NCBI GenBank assembly: GCA_964370905.1
Contig: CAYJKK010000001.1
Coordinates: forward strand, 99,749 to 163,748
Source: an uncultured Clostridium sp.
GTDB lineage: Bacteria > Bacillota > Clostridia > TANB77 > CAG-508
Reading direction: 5' to 3'
Length of the DNA stretch: 64,000 bases
This document shows, piece by piece, positions 1,890-28,439 of this stretch. Positions within the stretch are counted from its first letter, which is position 1. Every line of letters starts with the position of its first letter. The position numbers were made by a program, and so were the translations under genes. Below the pieces are notes generated by a model that did no database searches, was not told the DNA's origin, and saw only the letters and a program-made list of their open reading frames with translations.

Positions 1890-1912
1890 ATTTTTCTCCT
1901 TTCTTTTTTATT

Positions 1913-3019: not shown

Positions 3020-3046
3020 TATTTTTCCTCCTAAATTTAAACTTAA

Positions 3047-4678: not shown

Positions 4679-4693
4679 AATCTAATTCCTTTC

Positions 4694-5143: not shown

Positions 5144-5161
5144 ATTTATTCCTTTCTTAAC

Positions 5162-5602: not shown

Positions 5603-5621
5603 ATTATTTCCTTTCTAAGTA

Positions 5622-6404: not shown

Positions 6405-6514
6405 TTTTCTTCCTTTTCTTATTTGTTTAATTTACTTTAATTTTTTCCTTTTAATTATTATAAGAATTAATTCAAATATAAATATTTTTTTATATAATTT
6501 CTATATTTATATTT

Positions 6515-6547
6515 AAAGCCATACACACTTAGTGTGCGTATGGCTTT
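6515..6547 (-). terminator. Hairpin directly downstream of pilA (partial terminator/attenuator)
   Basis: aaagccatacacac...gtgtgcgtatggcttt forms a ~14-bp stem with one mismatch. The U-tract is poor on the minus strand, so read-through to pilD is likely. Confidence 0.5.
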
Positions 6548-6603
6548 TATTTATTTAATTATATAAATATACTATTTAATAATTTATTTATATTAACTTT
6601 TAA

Positions 6604-7110
6604 TTAATCTTTATCTGCTGGGCTCATTGTATCACCACTTGTGCTAACATTGATTGTTCCTACTAATCCTGATACATCTTCACCTTTATAATCTGCTACT
6701 CCTGTAATAGTTATAGTAGCAATATCAGATATAGATTGAGCACCTGAAGCAGATGAATCAAGTTTTAAGTTAGCTATAGTAACTTCTGTTGTTCCGTCTG
6801 ATTCTAACATTCTTAAGTTAGCAACATCATCAGTTGTAACATCATTATCTGTTCCATTTAAATTGTCAATTGCTCTTTCTAAATCAGTTACACTTAATCT
6901 ATTTGATAAAACTGATGAATATACAGCATATAATTCTAAGTTAATCATTTCTTCAGCTTCAGCTACAACTGTTTCTTTAGAAGCTTCACCTGCTCTAGTT
7001 AATATACCATTTTCACCTAATAATAATCCAATAGATACTGCAGCTAAAATTAATAATACTATAATTGTGATTACTAATGAAATTAATGTAATACCTTTTT
7101 GATTTCTCAT
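6604..7110 (-). CDS. pilA: Major type IV pilin
   Basis: 168 aa. MRNQKG|ITLISLVITIIVLLILAAVSIGLLLGENGILTRA. Strong RBS AAAGGAGGAAAAAG, and the gene is followed by a hairpin. Confidence 0.8.
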   Translation of the reverse strand: MRNQKGITLISLVITIIVLLILAAVSIGLLLGENGILTRAGEASKETVVAEAEEMINLELYAVYSSVLSNRLSVTDLERAIDNLNGTDNDVTTDDVANLRMLESDGTTEVTIANLKLDSSASGAQSISDIATITITGVADYKGEDVSGLVGTINVSTSGDTMSPADKD

Positions 7111-7187
7111 GTGTTCTTTTTCCTCCTTTTCTTTAGAATTTTTTATTGACTTATATTTATTTTTTATAAATATAATGTTAATAACTA

Positions 7188-7586
7188 TTATTTTGTACCT
7201 TCATCATCAAAATATGATCCACCTGATGATGAACTTCCACTTGAAGATCCATTATTTGTTGAACCCGAATTTCCATCCGGATTTTCAGTTGGAGCTTCTT
7301 CTACATAAGTAGAAAATGGATTTGCTTTCCCTGATGTATAATCTGATGAAATTTGGTAATTTCTTAAATCTGATGAATCTACTGAATATGTCATAACAAT
7401 TGTTTCTTTATCAACTGTCATTTCAGCTAATTCCTCTTTTACATCTTCTGGAGTTGTATATGCAACTTGTGTCGGTAGTGTTTTTGTCATTGGGAAGTAA
7501 TCATAAAGTAATATTCCTAGTACAACTAAGATTGCAAGAAATAATAACATTAATATTATAATTTCTTTTAAAACTGATTTTACCAT
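7188..7586 (-). CDS. Hypothetical single-pass membrane protein with a Ser/Gly-rich tail
   Basis: 132 aa with an N-terminal TM (IIILMLLFLAILVVLGILLY) and a C-terminal GNSGSTNNGSSSGSSSSGGS stretch. AAGGAG RBS. Lies between pilO and pilA. Confidence 0.55.
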   Translation of the reverse strand: MVKSVLKEIIILMLLFLAILVVLGILLYDYFPMTKTLPTQVAYTTPEDVKEELAEMTVDKETIVMTYSVDSSDLRNYQISSDYTSGKANPFSTYVEEAPTENPDGNSGSTNNGSSSGSSSSGGSYFDDEGTK

Positions 7587-7610
7587 TGCTTATCTCCTTT
7601 TAAATTTAAA

Positions 7611-8297
7611 TTATTGTTTTGTAGTATCATCTTCTGTGTTTTCTTCGGTATTTTCATTATTAGTTTCTTCTGTATTTTGATTTGCATTGTTTGTTGATAT
7701 AATTTCATCTGTTATTCCATTAATTGCTATATCATTACAAGCAAATGTGGCTTGTAACACATCAACTGATGAACCTGGCTTTAATGAAAAGTTCTCTATT
7801 TTAAATCCTAAAGTTTCATCATTTTCTATTCTAGATATAAAATCTATTATAGCTATATAACTTCCTGAAATTGTGAAATTTAAATCATATGCATTTTCAA
7901 TTATTGAATTTCCTCTTAATACATCCATTTTCATTATTGTATTTTCACCTGTTGCATAATTACCAATTTTTACTAATAAATTTTCAAAATCGTATTCTTC
8001 TAATACTCCTATTGGAGCACCATTTTCATCTGTACCTAAAAGTATTAATTCTTCATACTCTGTCTTTTGTTTTTCTAATTCTTTTATATTATTTTCTAAT
8101 AGTGTTACAGCTTCTTTATAATCTTTTTGAGCTAACTTTGCTGCTTCTTGTATTTTTGTATCTAATACTTCATTTTCAGCTTGTATATTTTGGAAACTCA
8201 AAATCTTAAGTTCACCGAATTCCATTCCTTGTAAGATTACAAATACAGAAAGTGCTAATAATAACCCTATTAATATTAATAGTAATAATTTTTTCAT
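7611..8297 (-). CDS. pilO: PilO-like pilus alignment protein
   Basis: 228 aa with an N-terminal TM, a coiled coil and a C-terminal domain. Its start overlaps the pilMN stop. The call rests on position and architecture only. Confidence 0.5.
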   Translation of the reverse strand: MKKLLLLILIGLLLALSVFVILQGMEFGELKILSFQNIQAENEVLDTKIQEAAKLAQKDYKEAVTLLENNIKELEKQKTEYEELILLGTDENGAPIGVLEEYDFENLLVKIGNYATGENTIMKMDVLRGNSIIENAYDLNFTISGSYIAIIDFISRIENDETLGFKIENFSLKPGSSVDVLQATFACNDIAINGITDEIISTNNANQNTEETNNENTEENTEDDTTKQ

Positions 8298-9916
8298 GGC
8301 AACTCTCCTTCTATTTTAATTGTAACTATTCCTCCATCTTTTTGTCCTGATGTTGAAATTACGTTAGTTAAGATAACATCTGTTTTTATTTCTGCAATAA
8401 AGAACCCTAATTGTTCATATTTATCTGATTGAGCATATATTACAACTTTTTTTCCTGTTGTATTTTCTATTGAAGTAATTTGAACATTTTGTGGAATTAC
8501 AGCCATTACTTGATTTAATAAATTTGGAATTGCATTTCTGCTTTCATTTGTTTCCTGTATTTTTTCATTTGTTTTTTGTATATTTTGTATTAAATTAGTA
8601 TATTCACTTGTTTTTTCTTGTATTTTTTTATCATCATCAGTTACTTTTCCTATTTCTGACAATGTTTCTACAATAAACATATCTGCTTCGTTTTGCTTTT
8701 CAAATGTATAGTATGTTAATATACCAGAAAATACTGAGAATATAACTGCGAACATAAGCATTGTATTTGATACACGAAGTAATGCACTTTCTGTTCTATC
8801 AAATTTCTGTCCTAGATCCCAAGTCAAAAATCCACCTTGATTTTTTTGTTCTTCTTTTGTTTTTCCTGGATTTATTTCTATTTTAAACCATCCTGGAACT
8901 TTTTCTGCAAAAGATTGATGTTTGAAGTTAAGACCTTGAACACCTTCACCTAAATATGTTAACGCAACTGATAAAGCTGAGTTAACCTCTACGTAATCTT
9001 TCATATTTATATCTCTTATATTTTCTAAGAAATGTGGTTTTAATATTTCACAGTCTACTTCTGGTAAATATTCTTGGAAATATAAGTCAACATTATTAAT
9101 TAATGCAGCTGTTCCTGTAATATATACTTTGCCAATATCTTGTACAGACTTGTTAATTGATTTTTTAACATTTCCTACTATTTTATATAGTGTTGGCATT
9201 ATATTTTCTAAATACTGTATATGTTCATTTTCTTGTAATTCCATACCATTAGATGTATATATTGTTGTGTTTTTTGCAATTTCATATGCTTTTGAATATG
9301 AATTTTCATTTAAGTTTATTTCATCTAAGAACTCTTTAGCCCCACCATCTATTTTTTCAATATCATAAATTTTACCGCCTAATACAGTTGTTACTGTTGT
9401 TTCTTGTTCCATATTTACAATCATATAATTTTCTACATCATCTACTTTAGTTAGTGATGTTATAGCTATTGGTAATGGTACAATACCTTTTAATTCATAA
9501 TTTGCTAAATTTTGTGTTGTTTTATTTTGATTAATTTTATTTGATGAAACATGTATAACTCTTAATTTATCTTTATCTACTAGGTCATTTACTATTGCAT
9601 ATCTTGTTTCAAATACATTTGGATTTATATTTTTTTCATTATTGTAATATGCAAATTCCGTACTAATTGCTGCTACTAAATCTTTTTTATTTAATAAACT
9701 AGACATTTCAAAATACATATATGCTTCTTCAGATAAATTAACACTTATTGGTGTTTTTTGGCTATATGTTTCTTGGATTACTTGATTTATACCATCTTGT
9801 ATGTTTTCATAGAACTTAGTCCCAAAAGATTCAACACGTATATTTGATTGTTCTTTTGAAACTTTTGCGTATTTAATTAAATTTTCTTCAATATACAGTC
9901 CTAAACATTTCGACAT
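8294..9916 (-). CDS. pilMN: PilM-PilN fusion protein
   Basis: 540 aa. An actin-like ATPase-fold N-terminal ~340 aa is followed by a TM (LMFAVIFSVFSGILTYYTF) and a PilN-like coiled-coil/periplasmic part. First gene of the cluster, matching the fusion known in clostridial pil loci. Confidence 0.7.
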   Translation of the reverse strand: MSKCLGLYIEENLIKYAKVSKEQSNIRVESFGTKFYENIQDGINQVIQETYSQKTPISVNLSEEAYMYFEMSSLLNKKDLVAAISTEFAYYNNEKNINPNVFETRYAIVNDLVDKDKLRVIHVSSNKINQNKTTQNLANYELKGIVPLPIAITSLTKVDDVENYMIVNMEQETTVTTVLGGKIYDIEKIDGGAKEFLDEINLNENSYSKAYEIAKNTTIYTSNGMELQENEHIQYLENIMPTLYKIVGNVKKSINKSVQDIGKVYITGTAALINNVDLYFQEYLPEVDCEILKPHFLENIRDINMKDYVEVNSALSVALTYLGEGVQGLNFKHQSFAEKVPGWFKIEINPGKTKEEQKNQGGFLTWDLGQKFDRTESALLRVSNTMLMFAVIFSVFSGILTYYTFEKQNEADMFIVETLSEIGKVTDDDKKIQEKTSEYTNLIQNIQKTNEKIQETNESRNAIPNLLNQVMAVIPQNVQITSIENTTGKKVVIYAQSDKYEQLGFFIAEIKTDVILTNVISTSGQKDGGIVTIKIEGELP

Positions 9917-10027
9917 TTTTCTTCCCTCTTTTTCTATAATTTATATATATTTTAAACATTTTCCCAAAAATAATACATTTATATTTCATCTTTAGAATTT
10001 TATTTATCACTATATTTTCTTTCCTTA

Positions 10028-10055
10028 ATTATATATTAAAAGAATTAAAAGTCAA
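10028..10055 (-). promoter_or_regulatory. Sigma-A-type promoter of the pil operon
   Basis: The minus strand reads TTGACT-16 nt-TATAAT (-35 at 10050-10055, -10 at 10028-10033). Confidence 0.55.
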
Positions 10056-10071
10056 TCACTTTAACACAAAC

Positions 10072-10104
10072 GTAATATAATTGTAATATAATTGTAATAT
10101 TTGT
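10072..10104. repeat. Tandem 11-bp repeats GTAATATAATT x2 plus a degenerate third copy
   Basis: Direct reading. 10072-10100 is the exact reverse complement of 17766-17794. The array lies just upstream of the -35 of the pil promoter. Confidence 0.95.
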
Positions 10105-10118
10105 TATATTTTAGATTT

Positions 10119-11462
10119 TTATGTATTTTTTTTCAATTTTAAAATATAAAATCCATCTGTTTTTTCGTTTGGTAATACCTGGATTCCTCCTATATTGTCT
10201 TTAAATTTGTCAAAGAAATCATTTTTTTGATATTTTAAATCAATAATTGAAAATTCTTTATTATTTACCAAAAATTTATTTATAACATCTTTATTTTCAC
10301 TACTTATTATACTACATGTAGAATATACTATTTCCCCTTCTTTTTTTAAATATTTTGAACAATTTTCTAAAATTACATATTGCAATTTAGATATATTTTC
10401 TATATCTTCTTTTTTCTTTTGCCATTTAATATCTGGTTTTCTTTTCATAACACCCAAACCTAAACATGGAACATCTAATAGAATTTTATCAAATTTTTCT
10501 TTATATTTTTCTTCATATATACTTCCATCTTGTTTTAGTGTTTCAATTATATCTATGCCCAATCTCTTAGCATTTTGTTTTACTAATTCTAGTCTGTGGT
10601 CATACACATCAAACGCTGTTATTTCTCCACTATTCCCCATAATTTCTGCCATAAATGTAGTTTTTCCACCAGGGGCGCTGCATGCATCTAGTACTTTTTC
10701 ACCGTGTTTAGGATTCAATAGTATCGGAATCAATCCTGCTGCTTCATCTTGAATTGTAAATAGCCCGTCTTTAAATTCTTTTAAATTTTCAATATTTTTA
10801 ATTTTATCTAGAACTAAAAATGGTTCTATTATACCTTTTTCTACCACAATATTTTTAGCTTCTAATTTTTGAATTAATTCATCAATTTCTATTTTCAAAT
10901 TATTAACTCTAATACATAATTTAGGTCTTATATTTGTAGCCTTACAAATTTCTTCTATACTTTCATTTGAATTATCTTTTTGTAATTCTTCAATTATCCA
11001 TTCTGGCATTGAATACATTTTAGATATTCTTTCTTTAAACTCTTGTATATCATTCATTTCAAGATAATCTATTTTTTCTACTTTTCTAAGTACTGCATTA
11101 ACAAAATTACTACTAGATCTATGACCATACCTTTTAGCTAAATTTACACTTTCATTAACTGCTGCTGATTTTGGGACTTTATCTAAAAACACAATTTGGT
11201 ATATCCCCATTCTAAGGATATTTAATATCCATGGTGATATTTTTTTTATTCTAACACTTGAGTATTTTTTTATAATTTCATCTATAGTAAGTCTCCAAGT
11301 CACTGTTCCATAAACTATTTCAGAAATAAAACCTACATCTTTATCTGTTAAATTTTTTCTATTTTCTTTTATCTTTTCATCTAATACTAAATTAGAATAA
11401 CTATTTTCTTCTTGCACTTTATATAATGTTTTTAAAATTATTTCTCTTGTTTTATCTATCAT
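10119..11462 (-). CDS. rsmB: 16S rRNA (cytosine967-C5)-methyltransferase RsmB
   Basis: 447 aa. NusB-like N-terminal domain plus a SAM methyltransferase with DACSAPGGKT, DVPCLG and YSTCS motifs. Confidence 0.85.
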   Translation of the reverse strand: MIDKTREIILKTLYKVQEENSYSNLVLDEKIKENRKNLTDKDVGFISEIVYGTVTWRLTIDEIIKKYSSVRIKKISPWILNILRMGIYQIVFLDKVPKSAAVNESVNLAKRYGHRSSSNFVNAVLRKVEKIDYLEMNDIQEFKERISKMYSMPEWIIEELQKDNSNESIEEICKATNIRPKLCIRVNNLKIEIDELIQKLEAKNIVVEKGIIEPFLVLDKIKNIENLKEFKDGLFTIQDEAAGLIPILLNPKHGEKVLDACSAPGGKTTFMAEIMGNSGEITAFDVYDHRLELVKQNAKRLGIDIIETLKQDGSIYEEKYKEKFDKILLDVPCLGLGVMKRKPDIKWQKKKEDIENISKLQYVILENCSKYLKKEGEIVYSTCSIISSENKDVINKFLVNNKEFSIIDLKYQKNDFFDKFKDNIGGIQVLPNEKTDGFYILKLKKNT

Positions 11463-11620
11463 ATATTTTTCCTCGCTTTTAAAAGTATTATATCCTTTTT
11501 TTTGGTTTTTTTCTATAGTTTATGCATTTGTTTTTAATTTGTATTTAATTTTTGTTTAACTTTTGTATATTTTATCCTTTTTTTGTAAAATATATTTTTA
11601 AAGAATTTTAGGAGGTAAAA

Positions 11621-11839
11621 ATGGAAATGAAAAAACATTTAATAATAACAGGGCATTCAAATATTTCTTGGAAGGATGCGATAGTTAAAGCTATTGATGA
11701 AACTTCAAAAACAATTGATTATATTTCAGAAGTTAAAGTTTTAGAACAAAGAGCTAATATTGATGGTAATAAATTATTAGATTATTTTGTTGATTTAGAT
11801 ATTAGTTTTATAATTGATACAAATAGAAAAAGTTCTTAA
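11621..11839 (+). CDS. Dodecin-family small flavin-binding protein
   Basis: 72 aa. ITGHSNISWKDAIVKAIDETSKTIDYISEVKVLEQ...VDLDISF matches the dodecin pattern. AGGAGG RBS. Confidence 0.6.
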   Translation: MEMKKHLIITGHSNISWKDAIVKAIDETSKTIDYISEVKVLEQRANIDGNKLLDYFVDLDISFIIDTNRKSS

Positions 11840-11851
11840 ATTGGAGGTATT

Positions 11852-12316
11852 ATGGATCCCTTAGAATCTAAAGAAGCATATATAAAATATGTTGATAAAC
11901 AATCCCCAAATTCTCCTCTTCTTAAAAATTGTTTTAGAGCATTTTGGGTTGGAGGTACAATTTGTGCTATTGGACAGATTGTTTTAAATATCTGTGAATT
12001 ACGCGGTTTTGATGAAAAAGTTTCTGGAAGTATTGTATCTATACTTTTTATTGCTATTGTCGCTTTTTTAACAGGTCTTAATATATTTAATAGAATTGGT
12101 AAATATGCAGGTGCTGGATCACTTGTTCCTATTACTGGGTTTGCAAATTCAATTGTCTCACCTGCAATGGAATTCAAGTCTGAAGGGTACATTATGGGTG
12201 TAGGTGGAAAAATGTTTACAATTGCAGGGCCTGTTTTAGTATTTGGTATTTCTACTTCAATTATTATAGGAATTATTTACCTTATATTTAACACCACCTC
12301 AATAACTTTAGTATAG
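11852..12316 (+). CDS. spoVAC: Stage V sporulation protein AC
   Basis: 154 aa membrane protein. FWVGGTICAIGQ...PITGFANS blocks are typical of SpoVAC. Confidence 0.85.
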   Translation: MDPLESKEAYIKYVDKQSPNSPLLKNCFRAFWVGGTICAIGQIVLNICELRGFDEKVSGSIVSILFIAIVAFLTGLNIFNRIGKYAGAGSLVPITGFANSIVSPAMEFKSEGYIMGVGGKMFTIAGPVLVFGISTSIIIGIIYLIFNTTSITLV

Positions 12317-12328
12317 GAGGAAATAACA

Positions 12329-13330
12329 ATGAAGAAAGTTGGAAAACAAACAATAATTTTTGATACACCACCTACTATTTTAGAATGTTCATCAATTGTA
12401 GGTCCTAAAGAATCAAATGGACCACTTAATAAATATTTTGATAAAGCATTAGATGATGAATTTTGGGGTGAAAAAAGCTGGGAAAAAGCTGAAAGTAAAA
12501 TAATTAGAGAAACTGTACTTTCTGTTATTAATAAGAGTGGATTACCGGCTAAAGATATAGAGTACATGTTTGCTGGTGATTTACTAAATCAGTGTATTTC
12601 TTCTAGTTTTGGATTAAGAGATGTAGGAATTCCCTTTTTTGGCATCTTTGGTGCTTGTTCAACATTTGTTGAATCAATGAGTCTAAGCGCTATATTAACT
12701 GAAAGTGTAGCAAATACTACTTTATTTGCTACATCTAGCCATTTTTGTAGTGCTGAAAAACAATTTAGATTTCCTCTTGAACTAGGAACACAAAGACCAC
12801 AAAGTAGTCAGTGGACTGTTACTGGCAGTGGCGCTGGTATATTATCAAAAACTGGTAATGGCCCATATATAACAAGTATTACAACTGGAAAAATAGTTGA
12901 TATGGGAATAAAAGATGCAAATAACATGGGTGCAGCTATGGCTCCTGCTTTTGTAGATACATTGCATGCACATTTATCTGATACAAATCGAACTAGTGAT
13001 TATTATGATTTAATCATAAGTGGTGATTTAGGGCATATCGGAAAAAATATAGCTATAGAGTTATCAAAAAAACTTGGTCATAATATCAAAAATAATTATG
13101 ATGATTGTGGTGTTTTAATATTTGATAAAGATTCACAAGATACACATAGTGGTGGTAGTGGTTGTGGCTGTTGTGCATCAGTTTTTTCTGGATATTTATT
13201 TAACTTACTAAAAACAAATAAAATTAAAAATATTTTATTAATAGCAACAGGTGCTTTAATGAATTCAACAAGTACCCAGCAAGGTGAAACAATCCCTGGA
13301 ATTGCTCATGCTGTTAGTATTGAAATATAG
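12329..13330 (+). CDS. spoVAD: Stage V sporulation protein AD
   Basis: 333 aa soluble thiolase-like protein in the spoVAC-AD-AE gene order. GGAGG RBS. Confidence 0.85.
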   Translation: MKKVGKQTIIFDTPPTILECSSIVGPKESNGPLNKYFDKALDDEFWGEKSWEKAESKIIRETVLSVINKSGLPAKDIEYMFAGDLLNQCISSSFGLRDVGIPFFGIFGACSTFVESMSLSAILTESVANTTLFATSSHFCSAEKQFRFPLELGTQRPQSSQWTVTGSGAGILSKTGNGPYITSITTGKIVDMGIKDANNMGAAMAPAFVDTLHAHLSDTNRTSDYYDLIISGDLGHIGKNIAIELSKKLGHNIKNNYDDCGVLIFDKDSQDTHSGGSGCGCCASVFSGYLFNLLKTNKIKNILLIATGALMNSTSTQQGETIPGIAHAVSIEI

Positions 13331-13343
13331 AAATGGAGAATAT

Positions 13344-13736
13344 ATGGAATTAGATGTATCTGAAATCTTTGAATTTTCATCTCTTATTAAAGCTTTTGTT
13401 GTTGGTGGAATAATATGTATTATTGGACAAATATTAATTGATAAAACAAAACTAACTCCTGCTAAAATTTTAGTCCTATTCGTAACAGTTGGAGCTATAT
13501 TAGGCGGGTTAGGCATATATGATTATCTAGTTGAATTTGGAGGTGCTGGTGCAACTATACCTCTTACTGGTTTTGGAAGTAGTCTTGCACATGGTGCTAT
13601 TGATGCTGTTAAAGAAAAAGGACTTATCGGAGCATTTACTGGTGGAATTTCAGCAACTGCTGGTGGAATAGGTGCTGCAATATTTTTTGGATATATAGCA
13701 TCTTTAATTTCAAAACCTAAAATAAAAAAAGAATAA
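13344..13736 (+). CDS. spoVAE: Stage V sporulation protein AE (SpoVAEb-type)
   Basis: In-frame ATG at 13344 preceded by GGAGAA. FVVGGIICIIGQ...PLTGFGSS is paralogous to SpoVAC. The track's start at 13284 would overlap spoVAD. Confidence 0.8.
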   Translation: MELDVSEIFEFSSLIKAFVVGGIICIIGQILIDKTKLTPAKILVLFVTVGAILGGLGIYDYLVEFGGAGATIPLTGFGSSLAHGAIDAVKEKGLIGAFTGGISATAGGIGAAIFFGYIASLISKPKIKKE

Positions 13737-13760
13737 CAACAGAAAGAAAAAATCATTAGT

Positions 13761-14906
13761 CTAATATGCTAATGATTTTTTTCTTCTACGAATAACTGGA
13801 GCTATTTCGAATTCTATTTCAAAACATTCAAATCTTCCTGTTTGATTATCTTCTAAATAATCTAAATATATATCTAATTCATCAACTGTTTTACAAGCTG
13901 AAATTATCGCTGGATGCAAATTATATGAGAATAATAATTCCATACCTAAATCAAAAGCAAAGACTAATGATTTATTTTCTTTTTTTCTTGCTAATCTAAA
14001 AGCTTCTTTAAATCGCATTACTGGTGCATTTTTATAATAATCTATTGATTTCATATATTTTTTTGCAATTACACTTTCAACACATGTATATTTATTTGGA
14101 TGTTTTCTCATTTCTCTTTCTATGTCTTTATATAAGAATGGTAGTACAACTTTTCCTGAAGTTTCTGATATAAGAAGTGTGTTTTCTTTATAATCTTCTA
14201 AACCTATCAAATTAGGCTCTTCTATGTTCTCTTCTTTACTATTTTGAATTTTAGTATCTATGACTTTTTCTTGCATTTCAGTTTCTTGTATAACATTTTT
14301 TATAGGCATTTCTATGTTAGATTCTTCTCTTAAATCTATTTTGTACAAATCAGATACATCTTGGACTTCTGTTTCCATATCTAATTTTTGTTCTTCTTCT
14401 ACTTCTATTTTTTCTGTAATTTCCTCTTTTGTATAAACTTCATCTATATTATTTATTTTAGAACTAGACTCTTGAACATTATATATATTTGAAAAACCTG
14501 CTAAATCATTTAGGCATTCTTGTATGCGTATTGTGTTAGTAGTTACACTTTTTAAAATTTCTATATATTTTTCATTTAGATCATTTAAATATGTTTCGAA
14601 ATTTTGATCGTTTAAATCATATTTTACTTGATTGTACAAATTGATTATATCCGTCAAATTTACAACATTATTATTTACACATTCAATAGCATTTTTAGCT
14701 TCTTCTAAAACATTAACCATTTTTTCTATATTGTTTTCTTCTATATTTTCATTAGAATCAACAAATTTTTGCATATATACTAAAAACACTTCTTTTTGTC
14801 TTTCTTGAGATCCAAGTACGCAATCTAAATATTCTTTTTCTTTTTCCAAATTTTCAATTATTTTTCCAAATTGTATACATCCATTATCTTTTGTTATAAC
14901 TATCAT
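13761..14906 (-). CDS. Hypothetical acidic coiled-coil protein; last gene of the SipW/TasA-like operon
   Basis: 381 aa. The N-terminal half is Glu/Asn-rich and the conserved-looking C-terminal ~140 aa contain no motif I recognise. Confidence 0.5.
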   Translation of the reverse strand: MIVITKDNGCIQFGKIIENLEKEKEYLDCVLGSQERQKEVFLVYMQKFVDSNENIEENNIEKMVNVLEEAKNAIECVNNNVVNLTDIINLYNQVKYDLNDQNFETYLNDLNEKYIEILKSVTTNTIRIQECLNDLAGFSNIYNVQESSSKINNIDEVYTKEEITEKIEVEEEQKLDMETEVQDVSDLYKIDLREESNIEMPIKNVIQETEMQEKVIDTKIQNSKEENIEEPNLIGLEDYKENTLLISETSGKVVLPFLYKDIEREMRKHPNKYTCVESVIAKKYMKSIDYYKNAPVMRFKEAFRLARKKENKSLVFAFDLGMELLFSYNLHPAIISACKTVDELDIYLDYLEDNQTGRFECFEIEFEIAPVIRRRKKSLAY

Positions 14907-14927
14907 AACTTCTCCTTATTTTTTAGA

Positions 14928-15554
14928 TTATTCATTACAAAGGTAATATTCATTTTGTTCATTTCTTTTTTTATTTTCGTAGGCTATTCTCTTTATATTC
15001 CTTTCAGTTTTCTTTTTTTTCATATTCCCAGTATATGCTATATATACATATGCAAATAATAATAACACAATAATAACTATCCCATTTTGTAACCATAACA
15101 CTGCATATCCTAAAAATGGTATTGCTCCTATTACTTTACCTTCGATTGCAGAGCCTTTAACAACCCCTTGATCTTCTGCGTTATTATTATCACCTTTTGT
15201 TTTATATTCTACTTGACTATTATTTTCCATTACTTCTGTTATTCTATGTGTTACAACTGTTTCTCCCTGTCTAAAAGATATGGTATCTCCTACATCATAT
15301 TTTTGATCAGTACTTTTTACAATTGCTATATCGCCTATATTATAGGTTGGTTCCATACTTCCTGACACTATTACATATGTTTTATATCCTAAAAAATCTG
15401 GTGTTTTATCTGGACTTATTATAGCTTGCAAAATTAATGATATATTATATACAATAAGTGGTATTACAATTATATATACCATCAATTGCAATCTATTCAT
15501 AATTCTTTTACTTTTAGCTTTTCTCTTAACAATCGCTTCATTTGTATATAACAT
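14928..15554 (-). CDS. sipW: SipW-type (S26B, ER/archaeal-type) signal peptidase I
   Basis: 208 aa with VSGSMEP, THRI (His in place of the LepB Lys) and KGDNN boxes, plus N- and C-terminal TM segments. Confidence 0.8.
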   Translation of the reverse strand: MLYTNEAIVKRKAKSKRIMNRLQLMVYIIVIPLIVYNISLILQAIISPDKTPDFLGYKTYVIVSGSMEPTYNIGDIAIVKSTDQKYDVGDTISFRQGETVVTHRITEVMENNSQVEYKTKGDNNNAEDQGVVKGSAIEGKVIGAIPFLGYAVLWLQNGIVIIVLLLFAYVYIAYTGNMKKKKTERNIKRIAYENKKRNEQNEYYLCNE

Positions 15555-15576
15555 TTTATTCTCCTTTTCATTTTAA

Positions 15577-16233
15577 TTATATTGAATTTGTAGCTTCTAT
15601 GACCATCTCTAACATATATTGTTGGTCTTCTACTTTAGATCCAACTAATGTATCTGCTTCATCACTATTTTCCCAATACCATTCCACAGTATATTTAGTT
15701 ATAGAATCTTCTGCTACAATAATATTTTCAACATCTAATTCTGATATATCTAAATAGTCATTTTCATTTCCCCTTATATATACATTATCCATTTTTAATC
15801 TATATTTCATATTAATATCATTTGAAGTAGTTTCTATAAATTTTATATGATATTCAATCTCTTGTCCTGTAACATTTTCTACTATTACATCATATTTTCC
15901 GTATGACATAGGAGCTATTATCTTTTCATTATCAAATTTCACATTTTGAAACATATTTATTTGTTCTTTTTTTTCAATATCTATATCTCCACTTGTAACT
16001 TCTATATATCTAGTATTTTCAACACCTGATAAAAATTCTTCTCGAGTTGCTCCTATTGTTCCTATCCTAAATGCTAATATAGTTACTAAAATTAGAAAAC
16101 AAGTTAAAAAAGCTCCTAATATTGACTTAATTTTCCTATTATGTTTTTTATCCTTTAAAAATTCTTCTAATGTATGTATTTTTTGTTTATCATTAGTTTC
16201 TTGATTTTGTTTTTGCATATTTTCTTTATTCAT
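15577..16233 (-). CDS. TasA/camelysin-like secreted protein, paralogue 2 (putative minor/accessory subunit)
   Basis: 218 aa with a signal-anchor. It shares blocks with the 223-aa neighbour: APMSYGKYDVIVENV vs APGVQGEFEIEVENL, TVEWYWE vs TIYWRWP, DTLVG vs DTLIG. Confidence 0.5.
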   Translation of the reverse strand: MNKENMQKQNQETNDKQKIHTLEEFLKDKKHNRKIKSILGAFLTCFLILVTILAFRIGTIGATREEFLSGVENTRYIEVTSGDIDIEKKEQINMFQNVKFDNEKIIAPMSYGKYDVIVENVTGQEIEYHIKFIETTSNDINMKYRLKMDNVYIRGNENDYLDISELDVENIIVAEDSITKYTVEWYWENSDEADTLVGSKVEDQQYMLEMVIEATNSI

Positions 16234-16300
16234 TAATCAATCCTCCTAATATTTTCACTTAAACATACTTCTTTAATATATTTAAGTCAAAATATCTATA

Positions 16301-16336
16301 ATATAGGTTCTAATTATTACTAAATAGAACCTATAT
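16301..16336 (-). terminator. 12-bp perfect hairpin just after the 223-aa gene
   Basis: atataggttcta-12 nt-tagaacctatat, starting 10 nt downstream of the stop. Confidence 0.55.
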
Positions 16337-16345
16337 TAATTTTTA

Positions 16346-17017
16346 CTAATCAACTTGTGTTACTGTTATATCTGTTGTTATTTGTATTTTAAGGTCATCA
16401 GTATCATCTGCAGTTGTTGCTGCTCCTGCTGCTGCTGCAATACCTATTAAAGTATCATTTGCATCTGCCGCTGCATCTGCTCCTATTGGCCATCTCCAAT
16501 AAATTGTTGAAGATGTTGATGTAGCACCACTATTTACCACAACTGGTGTAGTTATATCTGTTAAAGCTGCAGACCAATTTGTTCCATCAGCACTATACTG
16601 AATTGGAACAGTAGCTCCTACTGGGAAGTTTACTCCTTCAGATTCAAAAGAAACTGTATATTGTGCAGTTACATCTGATAAGTTTTCTACTTCTATTTCA
16701 AATTCACCTTGTACACCAGGTGCTATCATTCCAGCAGTTACATCTAATTCACCTGTAGTACTTTCAGTACCGTCAGCTGTATCAGTATCATTTATTGTAT
16801 CAAATAAATTAAATGATATTGAATCAGCCGGTGCTGTAGTTATATCTGTACCATTAACTTCAATTGACCATTTAGCAACTGTAGCTGAATCTACCCCACT
16901 TACTGTAGAAGTATATCTAGCATAAGTTCCAGAAACTAATATTAAGGCAATTATTGTTAAAAGTAATAATAAAGCTAATAATTTTTTATTATTTTTCTTT
17001 TCATTTCTTGCTTGCAT
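16346..17017 (-). CDS. TasA/camelysin-like secreted protein with a SipW-cognate-type signal peptide (putative major subunit)
   Basis: 223 aa. MQARNEKKNNKKLLALLLLLTIIALILVSGTYARYTS has a K-rich n-region, an L-rich core and a GTYA-Y-T motif like TasA/CalY signals. The mature part is Thr/Ala/Asp-rich. GGAGGTG RBS. Confidence 0.6.
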   Translation of the reverse strand: MQARNEKKNNKKLLALLLLLTIIALILVSGTYARYTSTVSGVDSATVAKWSIEVNGTDITTAPADSISFNLFDTINDTDTADGTESTTGELDVTAGMIAPGVQGEFEIEVENLSDVTAQYTVSFESEGVNFPVGATVPIQYSADGTNWSAALTDITTPVVVNSGATSTSSTIYWRWPIGADAAADANDTLIGIAAAAGAATTADDTDDLKIQITTDITVTQVD

Positions 17018-17079
17018 TTTTTCACCTCCTTTTAGTTAAAATATATCTTTAATTTAAAAAACTTTTTAATGTTTTGAAA

Positions 17080-17679
17080 TTATTTTTTATTCAATAATTC
17101 CTCTTTTTCTTTTTTTAATTTTCTAACTTCCTCTTCCAATTCTAATTCTTTTTCTGTTGTTTCTTTAACATATTTTAAACTTTCTTTATTTTCATAGAAT
17201 TGAATTAATACTAATAATAGTATTGGTATAGATAATGCAACTACCATTCCTGTTGGTGTTTGTAAGAACATACCTAAATTCCCAAGACCAACTATTTTTG
17301 TTTGATATAAACCTTCTATATTATTCATAGTGATATATCCTTCATCATTTTGATCATTATTATCACCTTTTGTAATATATTGTCTTATTCCACTTGCTTC
17401 ATTTATTTCTACAATTCTATGAGTTATAACTGTGTCTTCAATTCTATATGCAATTATTTCTCCTACATCTAATTCTTCTTCTTTAACTTCATAAACAATT
17501 ACTAAATCTCCAACTGCAATATCTGTTTCCATAGATTCCGATAATACAATAAATGGTTTCCATCCAAAAAATGATGGTACTTCATTAGGATTTACTGCTG
17601 AATCTATTAAAATAACCGCATTTACAAATAAAATTGGAACTAGTAAAATTATAACTATTATTCTTAATATATTTTTCAT
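17080..17679 (-). CDS. sipW: SipW-type (S26B) signal peptidase I, second copy
   Basis: 199 aa with LSESMET, THRI and KGDNND boxes and a C-terminal TM followed by a coiled-coil tail. Confidence 0.75.
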   Translation of the reverse strand: MKNILRIIVIILLVPILFVNAVILIDSAVNPNEVPSFFGWKPFIVLSESMETDIAVGDLVIVYEVKEEELDVGEIIAYRIEDTVITHRIVEINEASGIRQYITKGDNNDQNDEGYITMNNIEGLYQTKIVGLGNLGMFLQTPTGMVVALSIPILLLVLIQFYENKESLKYVKETTEKELELEEEVRKLKKEKEELLNKK

Positions 17680-17761
17680 TCTGTTTCCCCTATTTCTTAT
17701 AAACTATTAAATATTATTATGTATTCATAATATACCATATAGTAAAAAAAAAGTACATTAA

Positions 17762-17794
17762 AATTATATTACAATTATATTACAATTATATTAC
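17762..17794. repeat. Tandem 11-bp repeats AATTATATTAC x3 (perfect)
   Basis: Direct reading. This is the reverse complement of the 10072-10104 array. It lies 83-115 nt upstream of the first SipW start codon. Confidence 0.95.
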
Positions 17795-17823
17795 AAAATA
17801 TGACATAAGTACTTATAACGCAA

Positions 17824-17855
17824 CAAAAAAAGCTATTTACAAATGTAATATAGCT
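17824..17855 (-). terminator. Rho-independent terminator of infC-rpmI-rplT
   Basis: The agctatttac/gtaatatagct stem is followed on the minus strand by a run of 7 T. Confidence 0.7.
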
Positions 17856-17876
17856 CTTTTATAATAATATTTAAAT

Positions 17877-18224
17877 TTATTTTTTTGACATTTCAACTAT
17901 TTCAGTAAATGCTTTTGGGTCATTTACAGCTATTTCAGCTAACATTTTTCTATTAACTGTAATATTTGCTTTTTTCATTCCAGCTATCATTCTACTGTAT
18001 GTAGTTCCATTCATTCTAGCTGCAGCGTTTATTCTTGCTATCCATAATTTTCTGAAATCACTTTTTTTGTCTTTTCTTCCTATATATGCATATCTTAAAG
18101 ATTTCATAACTGCTTGATTAGCATTTCTAAATCTATAACTTTTTGCTCCATAATATCCTTTAGCTTGTTTTAATATTTTTTTATGTCTTGCTTTTGTTGT
18201 TCTTGCTGTTTTTACTCTTGCCAT
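17877..18224 (-). CDS. rplT: 50S ribosomal protein L20
   Basis: 115 aa. [28 protein letters not shown]. Confidence 0.95.
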
Positions 18225-18262
18225 TTATTTCACCTTCCTTAATTCCCTCTATATTTTAATTA

Positions 18263-18466
18263 TTAGTTACCATATGGTAATAATTTTTTAATTGTTTTTA
18301 CACATGATTTATCCGCATAAGCATCTTGCACTTTTCCAGATTTTTTTTGTCTACTTGTTTTGTTTGCTAATAAATGTCTTCTATTAGCTTTAGTTCTTTT
18401 TACTTTACCAGTAGCTGTTAAAGAATATCTTTTTTTAGCTGCTTTATTTGTTTTTAATTTAGGCAT
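18263..18466 (-). CDS. rpmI: 50S ribosomal protein L35
   Basis: 67 aa. MPKLKTNKAAKKRYSLTATGKVKR. Confidence 0.95.
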   Translation of the reverse strand: MPKLKTNKAAKKRYSLTATGKVKRTKANRRHLLANKTSRQKKSGKVQDAYADKSCVKTIKKLLPYGN

Positions 18467-18505
18467 AATTAATACTCCTTTCGATTATATATATTTATTT
18501 AAGCA

Positions 18506-19009
18506 TTATGCTTTTTTAGCTAATATTGTAAACATGTTTCTACCTTCTAGTCTAGGTTGTTTTTCAACAGTTGCAATTTCTTCTAATGCAGTAATAAATC
18601 TTTGTAATACTGCTTCACCTGCTTTTGCATTATTTACTTCTCTACCTCTAAATCTAACTGTTATTTTTACTTTGTTTCCGTCTTCAATGAATTTTCTAAC
18701 GTTTTTAGATTTAAAACCAAAGTCATGTTCTTCAATATTAGGAGTTACTCTAATTTCTTTAAGCTCTAAAACTTTTTGTTTTTTCTTAGCTTCTTTTTCT
18801 TTTTTAGATTGTTCAAATTTGTATTTTCCATAATTCATTATTTTACAAACTTGTTGATCTGGCGAAACTAATACTAAATCTAAGTTTTTTTCTTCAGCTA
18901 GTGCTATAGCTTCTTCTAAAGATTTTTTTCCAAGTTTTTCACCTGTTTCTCCTATTAACTGAACTTCTTTAGCTTTAATCTGTCTGTTGATTGGTAATTC
19001 TTGTTTTAT
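18506..19009 (-). CDS. infC: Translation initiation factor IF-3, probable ATA start
   Basis: IKQELPINRQIKAKEVQLIG... is typical IF-3. GGAGGTG at 19016-19022 sits 6 nt before ATA at 19009-19007. The track's TTG start at 19024 lies inside the SD sequence. Confidence 0.85.
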   Translation of the reverse strand: MKQELPINRQIKAKEVQLIGETGEKLGKKSLEEAIALAEEKNLDLVLVSPDQQVCKIMNYGKYKFEQSKKEKEAKKKQKVLELKEIRVTPNIEEHDFGFKSKNVRKFIEDGNKVKITVRFRGREVNNAKAGEAVLQRFITALEEIATVEKQPRLEGRNMFTILAKKA

Positions 19010-19024
19010 ATAAAACACCTCCAA

Positions 19025-19165
19025 TAAAAAAATTGACTATTGTTACAAGTCAATTCAAAAATACTATTAGATAAAATAATTATTTAAAATTATTTTCTAA
19101 AAATATTAAATTCTAACCTTTTCCTTATTTGTAAAGGTGAGAAGTTCGACTTCTTCTTGTAACGA
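19025..19165 (-). promoter_or_regulatory. L20-leader-like transcription attenuator upstream of infC
   Basis: The ~140-nt leader ends in the terminator ATTGACT-9 nt-AGTCAAT plus a run of 7 T (19025-19054). The 5' GUUACAAG (19163-19156) is complementary to CUUGUAAC in the terminator 5' arm and loop (19049-19042). Internal hairpins are AGAAGU/ACUUCU and ACCUUU/AAAGGU. Confidence 0.55.
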
Positions 19166-19170
19166 ATATT

Positions 19171-19200
19171 ATTATAGCATATAAAAATGGTAGCTGTCAA
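19171..19200 (-). promoter_or_regulatory. Sigma-A promoter with extended -10 for the infC operon
   Basis: The minus strand reads TTGACA (19195-19200)-18 nt-TATAAT (19171-19176), with TGc immediately 5' of the -10. Confidence 0.7.
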
Positions 19201-19245
19201 GCATTTTTCCAAAAACTTATTCTAAATCCTCTTATAATTTGTTAT

Positions 19246-20091
19246 TTAAAACATTAACACATATATTATTATACCAATTGATTGTATAGCAAATAAATTC
19301 AACATATTAGATGTAAGTAAATTGTTTGTTGCTTCAACAACTCCTAAAAATTTAGTTTCTTCATTTTTAGTATAGTGTTTTTGTGATTCTATAAAAGTTA
19401 TAAATTCTGGAGCACTTGTTATAATACCTAAAATTATTCCTAGTACTAACTCTGGAATATTAAATCTTAAATTTAATGTATCTAACGTATTTCCTAAAAA
19501 TGTACCTATAATATATAAGACTATGGTTGTACAAATTAAACTTATTATATATTTTACTATCTTTTGTTTATTTCCTCTTTCCCATTTTTCTTCTTTTTCT
19601 ATTTCTAAATTTAATTTTTCAAATTCCTTTTTTAAATATCTTCCTTCTATATATTTATCTATTTTTTTAAATAATATAAATAGTATTAGAAATATCATAA
19701 CGATCCCTAAATTCATTTTAAAATCAAAAACATATAATACTCCTGGTATTAATATCGTTATAATAACTAAAATCATGGTCATTTTAATTGCAGTTTTCTT
19801 TAATACTTTTTTATTGTTGTTTACATATATAGATATTATGTATTGAACAAAATTTATTATATTAGAAAATAATATATTTACAATTCCTGTTGCAATTAAT
19901 CCACTGCTACTAGAAACAATTACTGTTAATAATTCTGGTACAGATGTTGCATATCCCGTTATATCTCCTATCGTTTTTGGAGCTAAATCCAAACTTTCTC
20001 CAAGTTTTCTAAGTAATTTAACTAATATATATTTTGATACTAAAACTAATAATACTGAATAAAAAATAAATTTTAAAATCTCTACTATCAT
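19246..20091 (-). CDS. Sodium/calcium exchanger (CaCA, YrbG-like) family membrane protein
   Basis: 281 aa with two internal repeats carrying GYATSVPELL...NILFSNIINF and GIITSAPEFI...NLLTSNMLNL, resembling alpha-repeat motifs. Confidence 0.55.
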   Translation of the reverse strand: MIVEILKFIFYSVLLVLVSKYILVKLLRKLGESLDLAPKTIGDITGYATSVPELLTVIVSSSSGLIATGIVNILFSNIINFVQYIISIYVNNNKKVLKKTAIKMTMILVIITILIPGVLYVFDFKMNLGIVMIFLILFILFKKIDKYIEGRYLKKEFEKLNLEIEKEEKWERGNKQKIVKYIISLICTTIVLYIIGTFLGNTLDTLNLRFNIPELVLGIILGIITSAPEFITFIESQKHYTKNEETKFLGVVEATNNLLTSNMLNLFAIQSIGIIIYVLMF

Positions 20092-20284
20092 TTCTTATAA
20101 CTTCTCCTATGTATATTTTACCTTATATTTTTGCTTTTATCCTATATTTTATTGTTCTTACTTTATTTCTTATATTTTATCCTATTATTTTTTAATTGTC
20201 TATTTATTTTTTAAAATTTAATTTTTTATTTCCCTCGTTTCACTTAATTTGCTTTATTATCTTTTACTTTAAACTTCATTTTTG

Positions 20285-20313
20285 TTGATATTTACCAATA
20301 ATTAGTATATAAT
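20285..20313 (+). promoter_or_regulatory. Sigma-A promoter for the DUF1653-serS unit
   Basis: TTGATA-17 nt-TATAAT. Confidence 0.55.
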
Positions 20314-20344
20314 ATGTATATTATATTTTAAGGAGGAATTATTT

Positions 20345-20608
20345 ATGAATGAAATACAAATTGGAAAAGCTTACCGTCATTTTAAAGGTAACTATTATTT
20401 TGTAGAAAATGTAGCATTTGATTCAGAAACTATGGAAAGGTTTGTTGTATATAAACCACTATACTCTAGAGAAGATGGGCGCTCCATTTGGATTAGACCT
20501 GAAAAAATGTTTTTAGAAGAAATTCCAGAAAGACCTGATAATATAACAGGGCAAAAAACAAGATTTGCACTTGCAGATGAATTAAATAAAGATTACTTAC
20601 ATAAATAG
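20345..20608 (+). CDS. DUF1653-family protein
   Basis: 87 aa with YRHFKGNYYFV...VVYKPLY. AAGGAGG RBS. Confidence 0.6.
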   Translation: MNEIQIGKAYRHFKGNYYFVENVAFDSETMERFVVYKPLYSREDGRSIWIRPEKMFLEEIPERPDNITGQKTRFALADELNKDYLHK

Positions 20609-20635
20609 TGTAATAACAGTTAGGAGATATATTGT

Positions 20636-21922
20636 ATGATAGATATTAAAATATTACGTGAAAATCCAGAGTTAGTTAAAGAAAATATTAAGAGAAAATT
20701 TCAAAATCATAAATTAGTATTAGTTGATGAAATTTTAGATTTAGATATAAAATCGAGAGAAGTTAAATTACTAGGAGATAATTTAAGAGCTGAGAAAAAA
20801 ACACTTAGTTCAGAAGTTGGTAATTTAATGAAATCTGGAAAAAGAGATGAAGCTGAACAAATAAAATTAAAAGTTCAAGATATAAATAACAAATTAAGTG
20901 AAAATGAAAATTTAGAAAAAGAATATTCTAAGCAAGTTATTGATAAATTAATGAAAATACCAAATTTTATGCATGATTCTGTTCCTATTGGAAAAGATGA
21001 TTCTGAAAATGTTGAAGTAGAAAAATTTGGTGAACCTATTGTTCCAGATTATGAAATACCATATCATGGAGAAATAATGGAAAGCTTAAATGGTTTAGAT
21101 TTAGATAGTGCTAGACGTGTTTCTGGTAATGGTTTCTACTATATGTTAGGAGATGTTGCAAGATTACATTCTGCTGTATTATCTTATGCTAGAGATTTTA
21201 TGATAAATAAAGATTTTATTTATTGTATCCCACCATATATGATTAGAAGTGATGTTGTAGCTGGTGTTATGAGTTTTGAAGAAATGGATGCTATGATGTA
21301 TAAGATTGAAGGTGAGGACTTGTATTTAATTGGTACTAGTGAGCATTCAATGATTGGGAAATTTAAAGATCAAATCTTATCAAAACAGGAAATGCCTTGT
21401 AAAATGACATCTTATTCACCTTGTTTTAGAAAAGAAAAAGGTGCTCATGGTATTGAAGAACGTGGAGTATATAGAATACACCAATTTGAAAAACAAGAAA
21501 TGATTGTTGTATGTGAACCTGAAGATAGTTGGAATTGGTATGATAAAATGTGGTCATATACAGTTGAATTTTTTAGAAGTATGAATATTCCAATTAGAAC
21601 TTTAGAATGTTGTTCTGGAGATTTAGCTGATTTAAAAGCTAAAAGTGTTGATATTGAAGCATGGTCACCAAGACAAAAAAAATATTTTGAAGTTGGAAGT
21701 TGTTCTAATTTAACAGATGCTCAAGCAAGAAGATTAGGAATACGTATCAAAGGTGAAAATACAAACTATTTTGCCCATACTTTAAATAATACAGTTGTTG
21801 CCCCACCTAGAATGTTAATTTCGATTTTAGAGAATAACTATCAAGAAGATGGAAGTGTTTTAATCCCAGAAGTCTTAAGACCATATATGGGTGGATTAGA
21901 AAAAATGATACCTAAAAAATAA
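20636..21922 (+). CDS. serS: Serine--tRNA ligase
   Basis: 428 aa with an N-terminal coiled-coil arm (MIDIKILRENPELVKENI) and a class II core (FRKEKGAHG..., GSCSNLTDAQARRL). Confidence 0.9.
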   Translation: MIDIKILRENPELVKENIKRKFQNHKLVLVDEILDLDIKSREVKLLGDNLRAEKKTLSSEVGNLMKSGKRDEAEQIKLKVQDINNKLSENENLEKEYSKQVIDKLMKIPNFMHDSVPIGKDDSENVEVEKFGEPIVPDYEIPYHGEIMESLNGLDLDSARRVSGNGFYYMLGDVARLHSAVLSYARDFMINKDFIYCIPPYMIRSDVVAGVMSFEEMDAMMYKIEGEDLYLIGTSEHSMIGKFKDQILSKQEMPCKMTSYSPCFRKEKGAHGIEERGVYRIHQFEKQEMIVVCEPEDSWNWYDKMWSYTVEFFRSMNIPIRTLECCSGDLADLKAKSVDIEAWSPRQKKYFEVGSCSNLTDAQARRLGIRIKGENTNYFAHTLNNTVVAPPRMLISILENNYQEDGSVLIPEVLRPYMGGLEKMIPKK

Positions 21923-21979
21923 AAAGCAAGACAACAAAACAAAAATTAAAAATAATAAGAAAATAAAGGAATTTAAAAT

Positions 21980-28313: not shown

Positions 28314-28439
28314 TGAAATGTACCTCCTTTATCTTACGCGTATCGCTCTTTAATATTTTTTCATTTTAATTATACAAGATAAATTTATAAACTACAAGTA
28401 ATTTCTTTATTTTTTTCTTTACATTTTTGTTACAAAAAT

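Follow-up and report, generated by a model that had tools for sequence, protein, structure and literature searches.

The published consensus for WalR/VicR binding sites is TGTWAH-N5-TGTWAH (PMC9210968; PMC4168254), refined for VicR to TGTWAHA-N4 (PMC4168254), and sites in head-to-tail repeat with a period of one helical turn mark winged-helix response regulators of the OmpR/PhoB family (PMC6222199). VicR sites are found on both strands (PMC4168254, Table 1). As a rule, activating sites lie upstream of the -35 element and repressing sites overlap the promoter (PMC4168254). VicR also controls biofilm-matrix genes in Streptococcus mutans (PMC4168254, PMC9210968). In Salmonella the OmpR-family regulator PhoP activates from boxes in direct or reverse orientation, and ancestral and acquired genes differ in promoter architecture (PMC3335776). 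Here we describe arrays of TGTAAT hexamers, repeated every 11 base pairs (bp), in a 64-kb stretch of DNA (the window) from an uncultured Clostridium sp. (assembly GCA_964370905.1, contig CAYJKK010000001.1, positions 99,749 to 163,748 of the forward strand). The arrays precede a type IV pilus (pil) operon, an operon for SipW-type peptidases and secreted proteins (the sipW operon), and a conserved gene for a protein of 303 amino acids (aa). We propose, with a probability of roughly 60%, that they are cooperative sites for a WalR/VicR-like response regulator of the OmpR/PhoB family that would control pil, the sipW operon and other surface genes.

Positions 10072-10100 (GTAATATAATT GTAATATAATT GTAATAT) are the exact reverse complement of 17766-17794, as a preliminary description of the window had reported. 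A repeat search and the raw sequence agreed that the arms are 29 nucleotides (nt) long, 100% complementary and separated by 7665 nt. The three perfect units noted at the second locus are also present (AATTATATTAC, 11 nt each, at 17762-17794), and the view that such an identity exceeds what AT-rich DNA produces by chance holds, since a 64-kb sequence of 26.5% GC is expected to contain about 2e-6 inverted pairs of 29 nt without mismatch. Arrays of 11-bp units were seen as described, but the 11-mer itself proved incidental. In another register the arrays read TGTAAT-ATAAT-TGTAAT-ATAAT-TGTAAT, with the hexamers in direct repeat and a 5-nt spacer. In-phase extension gives four phased units in each of the two arrays (A and B), three of them strong and distal and one weak or degenerate on the promoter side. 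The 29-mer is not the functional unit; that role falls to the hexamer TGTAAT at a period of 11 bp.

We scanned the window for three or more TGT[A/T]A[A/T/C] hexamers at 11-bp spacing, allowing one mismatch at most. This gave five overlapping matches at only three loci, compared to 0.33 in Markov shuffles, and the five matches at period 11 compared with 0-2 at the other periods from 8 to 14. As stated earlier, the 11-bp period is about one helical turn and places all copies on one face of the DNA. All three loci are intergenic and promoter-proximal, the repeats are head-to-tail with one orientation for all units within an array, and the predicted -35 begins 0-20 nt past the array end in each case. 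Such repeats might be imagined as a low-complexity by-product of AT-rich DNA, a generic UP-element, curved DNA or a series of -10-like TATAAT boxes, with no specific binder. The genome has 26.5% GC, TATAAT lies inside each unit, and the exact 27-mer occurs in unrelated AT-rich contigs, one of which encodes a topoisomerase II-like protein. However, the invariant positions are the G and C of the hexamers, relatives swap ATAAT for spacers that do not form TATAAT, and both the excess at period 11 and the chance expectation given above are against it, leaving this explanation highly improbable. Tandem promoters built from TTGTAA and TATAAT within the units were rejected, as their spacings would be 0, 11 or 22 nt and TATAAT is lost in relatives.

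Array A (10060-10098, plus strand) reads TTTAAC-acaaa-CGTAAT-ataat-TGTAAT-ataat-TGTAAT, with units at 10060, 10071, 10082 and 10093. The rsmB stop codon (10119) flanks it on one side and the start of the pil operon (9916) on the other, and relative to pil the array is in reverse orientation; all genes of interest around arrays A and B are on the minus strand. The predicted pil promoter (10028-10055, minus strand) comprises a -35 TTGACT at 10055-10050, a 16-nt spacer and a -10 TATAAT at 10033-10028, and a consensus scan matched it at 11 of 12 positions. The distance of 17 nt previously given between the array and the -35 of TTGACT-16-TATAAT is correct for the array as then defined (16-17 nt), while the weak unit TTTAAC at 10060 is 4 nt from the -35.

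An array was found upstream of pilM in five species, always reversed: the window, L001-L003 (one species), L026, L004 and L035, where L numbers denote loci from other genomes. Among the five, PilM is about 60% and RsmB 60-67% identical. A gapless alignment showed no variation at 17 of the 18 positions of the three hexamers, compared with 3 of 10 in the spacers, and the pil -35 and -10 were conserved at a fixed distance from the array. In L035 the upstream neighbour is topA, not rsmB, and the array therefore belongs to, or travels with, pil. The array is likewise reversed upstream of a pilin-like gene in L046.

The pil alignment bears on a further explanation, in which the 11-bp units are a slippage-prone contingency repeat whose copy number alters promoter strength and so gives phase variation. 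The window's arrays do contain perfect tandem copies, loci differ in their number of units (3 to 6), and the 11-mer is expanded to about 11-12 copies in L037, L038 and L048. In relatives, though, the spacers have diverged between preserved hexamers at a constant distance to the -35, and selection has therefore acted on the boxes, not on repeat perfection. Three independent samples of the L001 species have identical arrays whose units are imperfect, and about three copies make a poor substrate for slippage. We consider a contingency repeat improbable.

Array B (17757-17795, minus strand) reads TGTAAT-ataat-TGTAAT-ataat-TGTAAT-ataat-TTTAAT, with units at 17795, 17784, 17773 and 17762, and is direct relative to sipW. 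The earlier placement of this array 83-115 nt upstream of the first gene of the operon holds for a sipW ATG at 17679. The putative sipW promoter (17729-17757, minus strand) has a poor -35, TGTACT (17757-17752), a 17-nt spacer and an extended -10, TGGTATATT (17737-17729); the weak unit TTTAAT at 17762 overlaps the -35-like hexamer. It is not a canonical match and fell below the threshold of the consensus scan. Measured from the pil and sipW promoters, arrays A and B span about -78 to -36 and run in opposite directions relative to transcription.

The closest comparison for both operons is L026 (GCA_964371215.1), in which RsmB is 67% and SpoVAD 78% identical and the gene order is as in the window. 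Upstream of sipW it carries TGTAAT-aaatc-TGTAAT-aaaat-TGTAAA in direct orientation, followed by AATGTAC and TGnTATATT. AATGTAC is thus kept between the window and L026, and TGnTATATT in L026 and L051, the extended -10 being common to all three. In L051 the sipW operon is at another locus and has a reversed array of four ATTACA units at a similar distance to its extended -10, TGATATATT. As the sipW array is direct in the window and L026 and reversed in L051, orientation is flexible.

Why, then, are the two arms identical? The identity is accounted for by one preferred full unit, TGTAATATAAT, from which this species builds both arrays. This unit also occurs in many other genomes, and L004 and L035 share its spacers at pil. 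The two arrays of L026 share hexamers but not spacers, which points to convergence on the preferred unit, or slippage-driven homogenisation toward it, as the source of the 29-nt identity, and not to a functional long repeat. Judged by these comparisons, the conserved element is the hexamer with an A-rich spacer, and neither the 11-bp 'unit' nor the perfect identity over 29 nt is more than incidental. The preliminary description had proposed looking for conservation in relatives, and the arrays are kept upstream of the orthologous pil operon (five species) and sipW operon (two further species). Its preferred idea, that these are phased sites in either orientation for one regulator that would co-control both operons, is supported by the conservation of arrays at both operons, by conserved hexamers with free spacers and by the flexible orientation.

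The second option raised was that the arms are recombination sites, with the 7.7-kb segment between them inverting as a switch by means of a recombinase or homologous recombination. A perfect 29-nt inverted repeat flanks the segment, and 29 nt is near the minimum for RecA-dependent exchange, so rare inversions are physically possible. Nevertheless, the pil array is kept in L001-L003 without the sipW block and its array (the whole L001 locus being visible), and L035 has no second array in the 3.7 kb readable upstream (murG, topA). The arrays of L026 differ in their spacers and have no long identity. Apart from one gene, the window, L026 and L001 do not differ in how the intervening genes are ordered and oriented. 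No recombinase is encoded within 6000-22000, and both promoters are on the operon side of their arrays, so that neither would be disconnected by a flip. The segment also carries housekeeping genes (rsmB, spoVA). Inversion is left unsupported by the missing partner array in L001, the lack of a nearby recombinase and the absence of a switched promoter, and we give it almost no weight. Known invertible promoter switches with inverted repeats include fimS of Escherichia coli and the cwpV and flgB switches of C. difficile. These resemble the present locus in having an inverted-repeat pair near genes for surface structures. They differ in that the segment here is 7.7 kb with housekeeping genes, not a short promoter cassette, no recombinase is present, no promoter would be switched, and the identity of the repeats is not kept in relatives.

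The third array in the window (28418-28483) is the most elaborate, with 4 + 2 units. A minus-strand run from 28456 to 28418 (TGTAAT-TGTAAT-TGTAAC-TGTAAA) is accompanied by a divergent plus-strand pair, TGTAAT-N5-TGTAAT, at 28467-28483. It lies in the upstream region (28314-28483) of the conserved 303-aa gene (27402-28313, minus strand), whose predicted promoter, with TTGTAG at 28397-28392, a 17-nt spacer and TATAAT at 28374-28369 (minus strand), is 20 nt downstream of the array. An array precedes the orthologous gene in six species (the window, L006, L020, L023, L031 and L032). The protein had at least 8000 homologues at E<=0.001, and those listed were 64-71% identical. It gave no Pfam, NCBIfam or Protein Data Bank (PDB) match. 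Its AlphaFold model has long coiled-coil helices, an acidic disordered linker and a basic C-terminal helix, with only generic fold matches. That it might be an autoregulated transcription factor was rejected on the lack of Pfam, NCBIfam and PDB matches and on a coiled-coil model that has no DNA-binding fold.

All three arrays conform to the WalR/VicR direct repeat of two or more TGTWAH hexamers with N5 spacing: CGTAAT/TGTAAT/TGTAAT in array A, three TGTAAT in array B and TGTAAT/TGTAAT/TGTAAC/TGTAAA in the third. They also follow the refined consensus. Position 7 was A in 72% of the 47 units that were not forced by the query, compared to a background of about 37%, and position 9 was A in 74%. 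An A follows every strong unit of arrays A and B and every minus-strand unit of the third array, and is missing after two units, namely the weak TTTAAT in array B and, in the third array, the second unit on the plus strand. By conservation, phasing, position and motif identity, all of them properties of the sequence, the arrays are conserved promoter-upstream elements, members of a motif family that precedes genes for the surface and cell envelope in many gut Clostridia. Other known boxes did not fit the hexamer. These were Spo0A (TGTCGAA), CodY, ScoC and Fur/Zur/PerR boxes, together with sigma-E/F/G/K promoters, the ComK box, CovR (ATTARA), SaeR and CiaR, and the C. difficile RR_1586 motif (DRTTAAG; PMC6222199).

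We then compared the arrays with those of other genomes, using an exact 22-mer (two units) to scan a genome collection and an exact 27-mer to scan metagenomes. The 22-mer occurred once each in 22 species genomes, 20 of which were Clostridia or other Bacillota, mostly metagenome-assembled genomes from gut or rumen. In 19 of these genomes further in-phase units with other spacers bring the total to 3-6 TGTWAH units, and every such array is intergenic. The two cyanobacterial matches and that in C. akagii were not extended and look like chance. The genes downstream included veg, in four genomes, with the array between yabG and veg (L008 4362-4400; L016 4700-4738; L017 2820-2858; L027 1791-1818), and pilM (L004). 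Others were thioester-domain (TED)/DUF11 adhesins (L009, L022, L044), a LysM-G5-M23 peptidoglycan hydrolase (L019), a YkuD L,D-transpeptidase (L007 and, from Dorea, L013), and, at several loci, other secreted proteins. Peptidoglycan enzymes (L019; L007, L013) and surface adhesins are thus among the array targets elsewhere, and the regulon predicted from these sites is much wider than the pil and sipW operons. Most arrays are oriented toward their gene, while pil arrays always point away. The Veg protein of Bacillus subtilis stimulates the tapA-sipW-tasA operon; no veg gene was found in the 64-kb window.

Two side observations concern the arrays elsewhere. In L026 a further four-unit array (895-933) is found between a radical-SAM (MiaB-like) gene and radA, where it precedes a 115-aa gene. 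The 11-mer GTAATATAATT forms about 11-12 perfect tandem copies in L037 (25-150), L038 (397-511) and L048 (3483-3597), apparently unrelated metagenome contigs of 27-41% GC, showing that the unit can expand by slippage. No contig of the window's species was among the matches of the 27-mer metagenome scan, and those of the 22-mer scan included neither the window's own genome nor another strain of its species.

Several points weigh against assigning the arrays to a WalR/VicR-like regulator. A tblastn search with a B. subtilis WalR sequence found no OmpR-type response regulator in the window or L001-L032, the loci that it covered. The arrays have 3-6 units, compared to two half-sites in classical WalR sites, and classical WalR targets are cell-wall hydrolases, whereas those in the window are pili, a secreted-protein operon and the 303-aa protein. 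Because the hexamers were chosen for fitting TGTWAH, independent evidence comes only from the spacer statistics, and the sipW promoter is predicted only from conservation. No array was present at more distant homologues of the 223-aa secreted protein of the sipW operon (36-42% identity; L028-L030), and sequence alone is not diagnostic, since AT-rich metagenome contigs that are unrelated contain the exact 27-mer as well.

A serious alternative is that the arrays are genuine conserved operators whose binder lies outside the response-regulator families, such as a clade-specific protein polymerising along one helix face. The lack of a response regulator near the arrays (window and L001-L032), a target set of pili, the sipW operon, veg, adhesins and the 303-aa gene that is not classical for WalR, and the unusual combination of 3-6 units with either orientation speak for it. 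Against this, the motif is an exact match to TGTWAH-N5-TGTWAH with A at position 7 (PMC4168254), and 11-bp head-to-tail repeats are a hallmark of winged-helix response regulators (PMC6222199). Two targets elsewhere are peptidoglycan enzymes, and the model of the 303-aa protein, which is the target conserved best, shows a coiled coil without a DNA-binding fold. On balance we think a binder of another family rather unlikely, and prefer an OmpR/PhoB-family regulator of WalR/VicR-like specificity. A candidate for the sensor is encoded in the window. This is an orphan histidine kinase (50825-52237, minus strand) of 470 aa with PAS and HisKA domains, of the WalK/PnpS/PhoR class and below all equivalog cut-offs. 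Its neighbours in the dcw cluster are murG and a signal peptidase I gene, no response regulator is close by, and the kinase could be the sensor of the array pathway.

What would such a regulator do at these promoters? From the features above we infer the family of the protein, the sign of regulation and the co-regulation of the targets. A winged-helix response regulator with the specificity TGTWAH-N5-TGTWAH would bind the arrays, where the 11-bp period would put all four half-sites on one helix face. Binding would be cooperative, as tandem dimers, with the three strong distal units filled first and the weak promoter-side unit filled only at high levels of phosphorylated regulator. From the weak unit the regulator would contact RNA polymerase and tune transcription. 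Activation is the most likely sign of regulation, because the arrays sit upstream of the -35. The pil operon, the sipW operon, the 303-aa gene and further targets would then respond to one signal, and the opposite orientation of arrays would be tolerated, as it is for the PhoP boxes of Salmonella.

The type IV pilus operon (546-9916, minus strand) encodes a PilM/N-like protein of 540 aa, proteins of 228 and 132 aa and a pilin with an N-methylation motif. A prepilin peptidase, two small proteins, PilB-like and PilT-like ATPases and a PilC-like platform protein make up the rest. The PilM-like protein has thousands of homologues, the closest of which, about 60% identical, are from an abundant human-gut lineage. 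The SipW-associated operon (13761-17679, minus strand) encodes a SipW of 199 aa, a secreted 223-aa protein (16346-17017, minus strand), its distant 218-aa paralogue (15577-16233, minus strand), a second SipW of 208 aa and a 381-aa protein.

This operon had been called SipW/TasA-like. SipW is indeed present, as two peptidases encoded alongside the 223-aa protein, but the TasA label rests on the SipW context and found no match in family models, the PDB or Foldseek. The 223-aa protein and 28 homologues gave no match to a TasA family model (Pfam Peptidase_M73; NCBIfam SipW-dependent exported families), even at E<=1, and the 223-aa protein had no sequence match in the PDB. Its AlphaFold model has a predicted local distance difference test score (pLDDT) of 69. 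The best Foldseek matches of this model were the donor-strand pilins FimG and FimF, which are weak (E 5e-3, template-modelling score 0.3-0.4), and TasA was not among the matches. Neither this protein nor the 218-aa paralogue belongs to a described family. The 223-aa protein is best described as a SipW-associated secreted protein with a predicted beta-sandwich, for which a role in a fibre is plausible.

The sipW block differs in location between genomes. In L001 rplT directly adjoins spoVAE (L001 5877-5940) and the block (window ~13740-17876) is absent, so the block is an insertion relative to that lineage. It is found at other loci in L027 and L051, and the homologous operon in L027 has only a pair of units. 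Its behaviour is that of a mobile cassette, which either carries its own array along or gains one, and the association of array and sipW is real but specific to this clade. The 381-aa gene (13761-14906, minus strand) is co-directional with the sipW operon in the window, while its 33%-identical homologue in L026 (9102-10340) is on the opposite strand, indicating a local inversion of this one gene.

Upstream of array B, a likely intrinsic terminator of rplT (17819-17860, minus strand; hairpin and U7, -12 kcal/mol) separates the ribosomal-protein operon from the array. It has the classical shape, with a z-score of only -1.2. Its stem-loop (17826-17860, minus strand) contains an inverted ATTACA/TGTAAA pair (AGCTATATTACATTTGTAAATAGCT), which may be chance or an extra low-affinity site beside array B. 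No Rfam family reached its gathering score anywhere in the 64-kb window, and therefore no cyclic di-GMP riboswitch or other leader explains the array regions. The same result holds for infC-rpmI-rplT and several aminoacyl-tRNA synthetase genes in the window, genes that often carry an L20 leader or T-box leaders in Bacillota. A weaker two-unit site, AGTAAT-aaaat-TGTAAT (31005-31021, minus strand), lies between divergent TetR-family and Lon-like genes, and the corresponding intergenic region of L031 has the two units TGTAAA-acaat-TGTAAA.

A shared DNA code before pili, a putative secreted-fibre operon, adhesins, veg and a widespread 303-aa protein predicts surface structures that are switched together in gut Clostridia. 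A more far-reaching idea, which we regard as doubtful though worth stating, is that one regulator is the master switch for type IV pili, SipW-dependent secreted fibres, thioester adhesins and veg in uncultured low-GC gut Clostridia. It would act through 3-6 TGTAAT units in either orientation, and would be either a rewired WalR or a member of a family not yet recognised as DNA-binding. The reverse wiring of pil promoters could give pili a response different from that of the other targets. The 44-bp array offers a bait for the regulator. The locus also carries a caution for scanning sequences, since a long inverted repeat can arise from two promoters that use an optimal short phased site.

Among promoters with several OmpR/PhoB-family sites, the PhoP core of B. 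subtilis consists of four TT(A/T/C)ACA boxes, and OmpR has sites F1-F3. The arrays are like these in that four half-sites spaced by 11 bp adjoin the -35 or take its place, and in a gradient from strong distal to weak proximal units, which suggests hierarchical, cooperative filling. They are unlike the B. subtilis PhoP box in that the hexamer fits at only 5 of 6 positions, and no phosphate genes were seen adjoining any array. WalR/VicR boxes share the hexamer, the 5-nt spacer, the head-to-tail arrangement, A at position 7, the promoter location and use of either strand, and some array targets elsewhere are peptidoglycan enzymes. The differences lie in the 3-6 phased units here compared to two, and in the targets in the window, which are pili, the SipW operon and a coiled-coil protein. 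A literature search retrieved no paper linking WalR to type IV pili in Clostridia. The PhoP architectures of Salmonella (Zwir et al. 2012, PMC3335776) are similar in that one regulator uses direct and reverse boxes at varied distances. In the present arrays the reverse orientation is constant at pil, and the direct one prevails at other targets. Differences from Salmonella lie in the phylum, in the box sequence and in the occurrence of one operon, sipW, with its array in either orientation between species. The sites described here, from uncultured gut Clostridia, are of a known cis-regulatory kind, with an unusual array size and an unusual set of targets.

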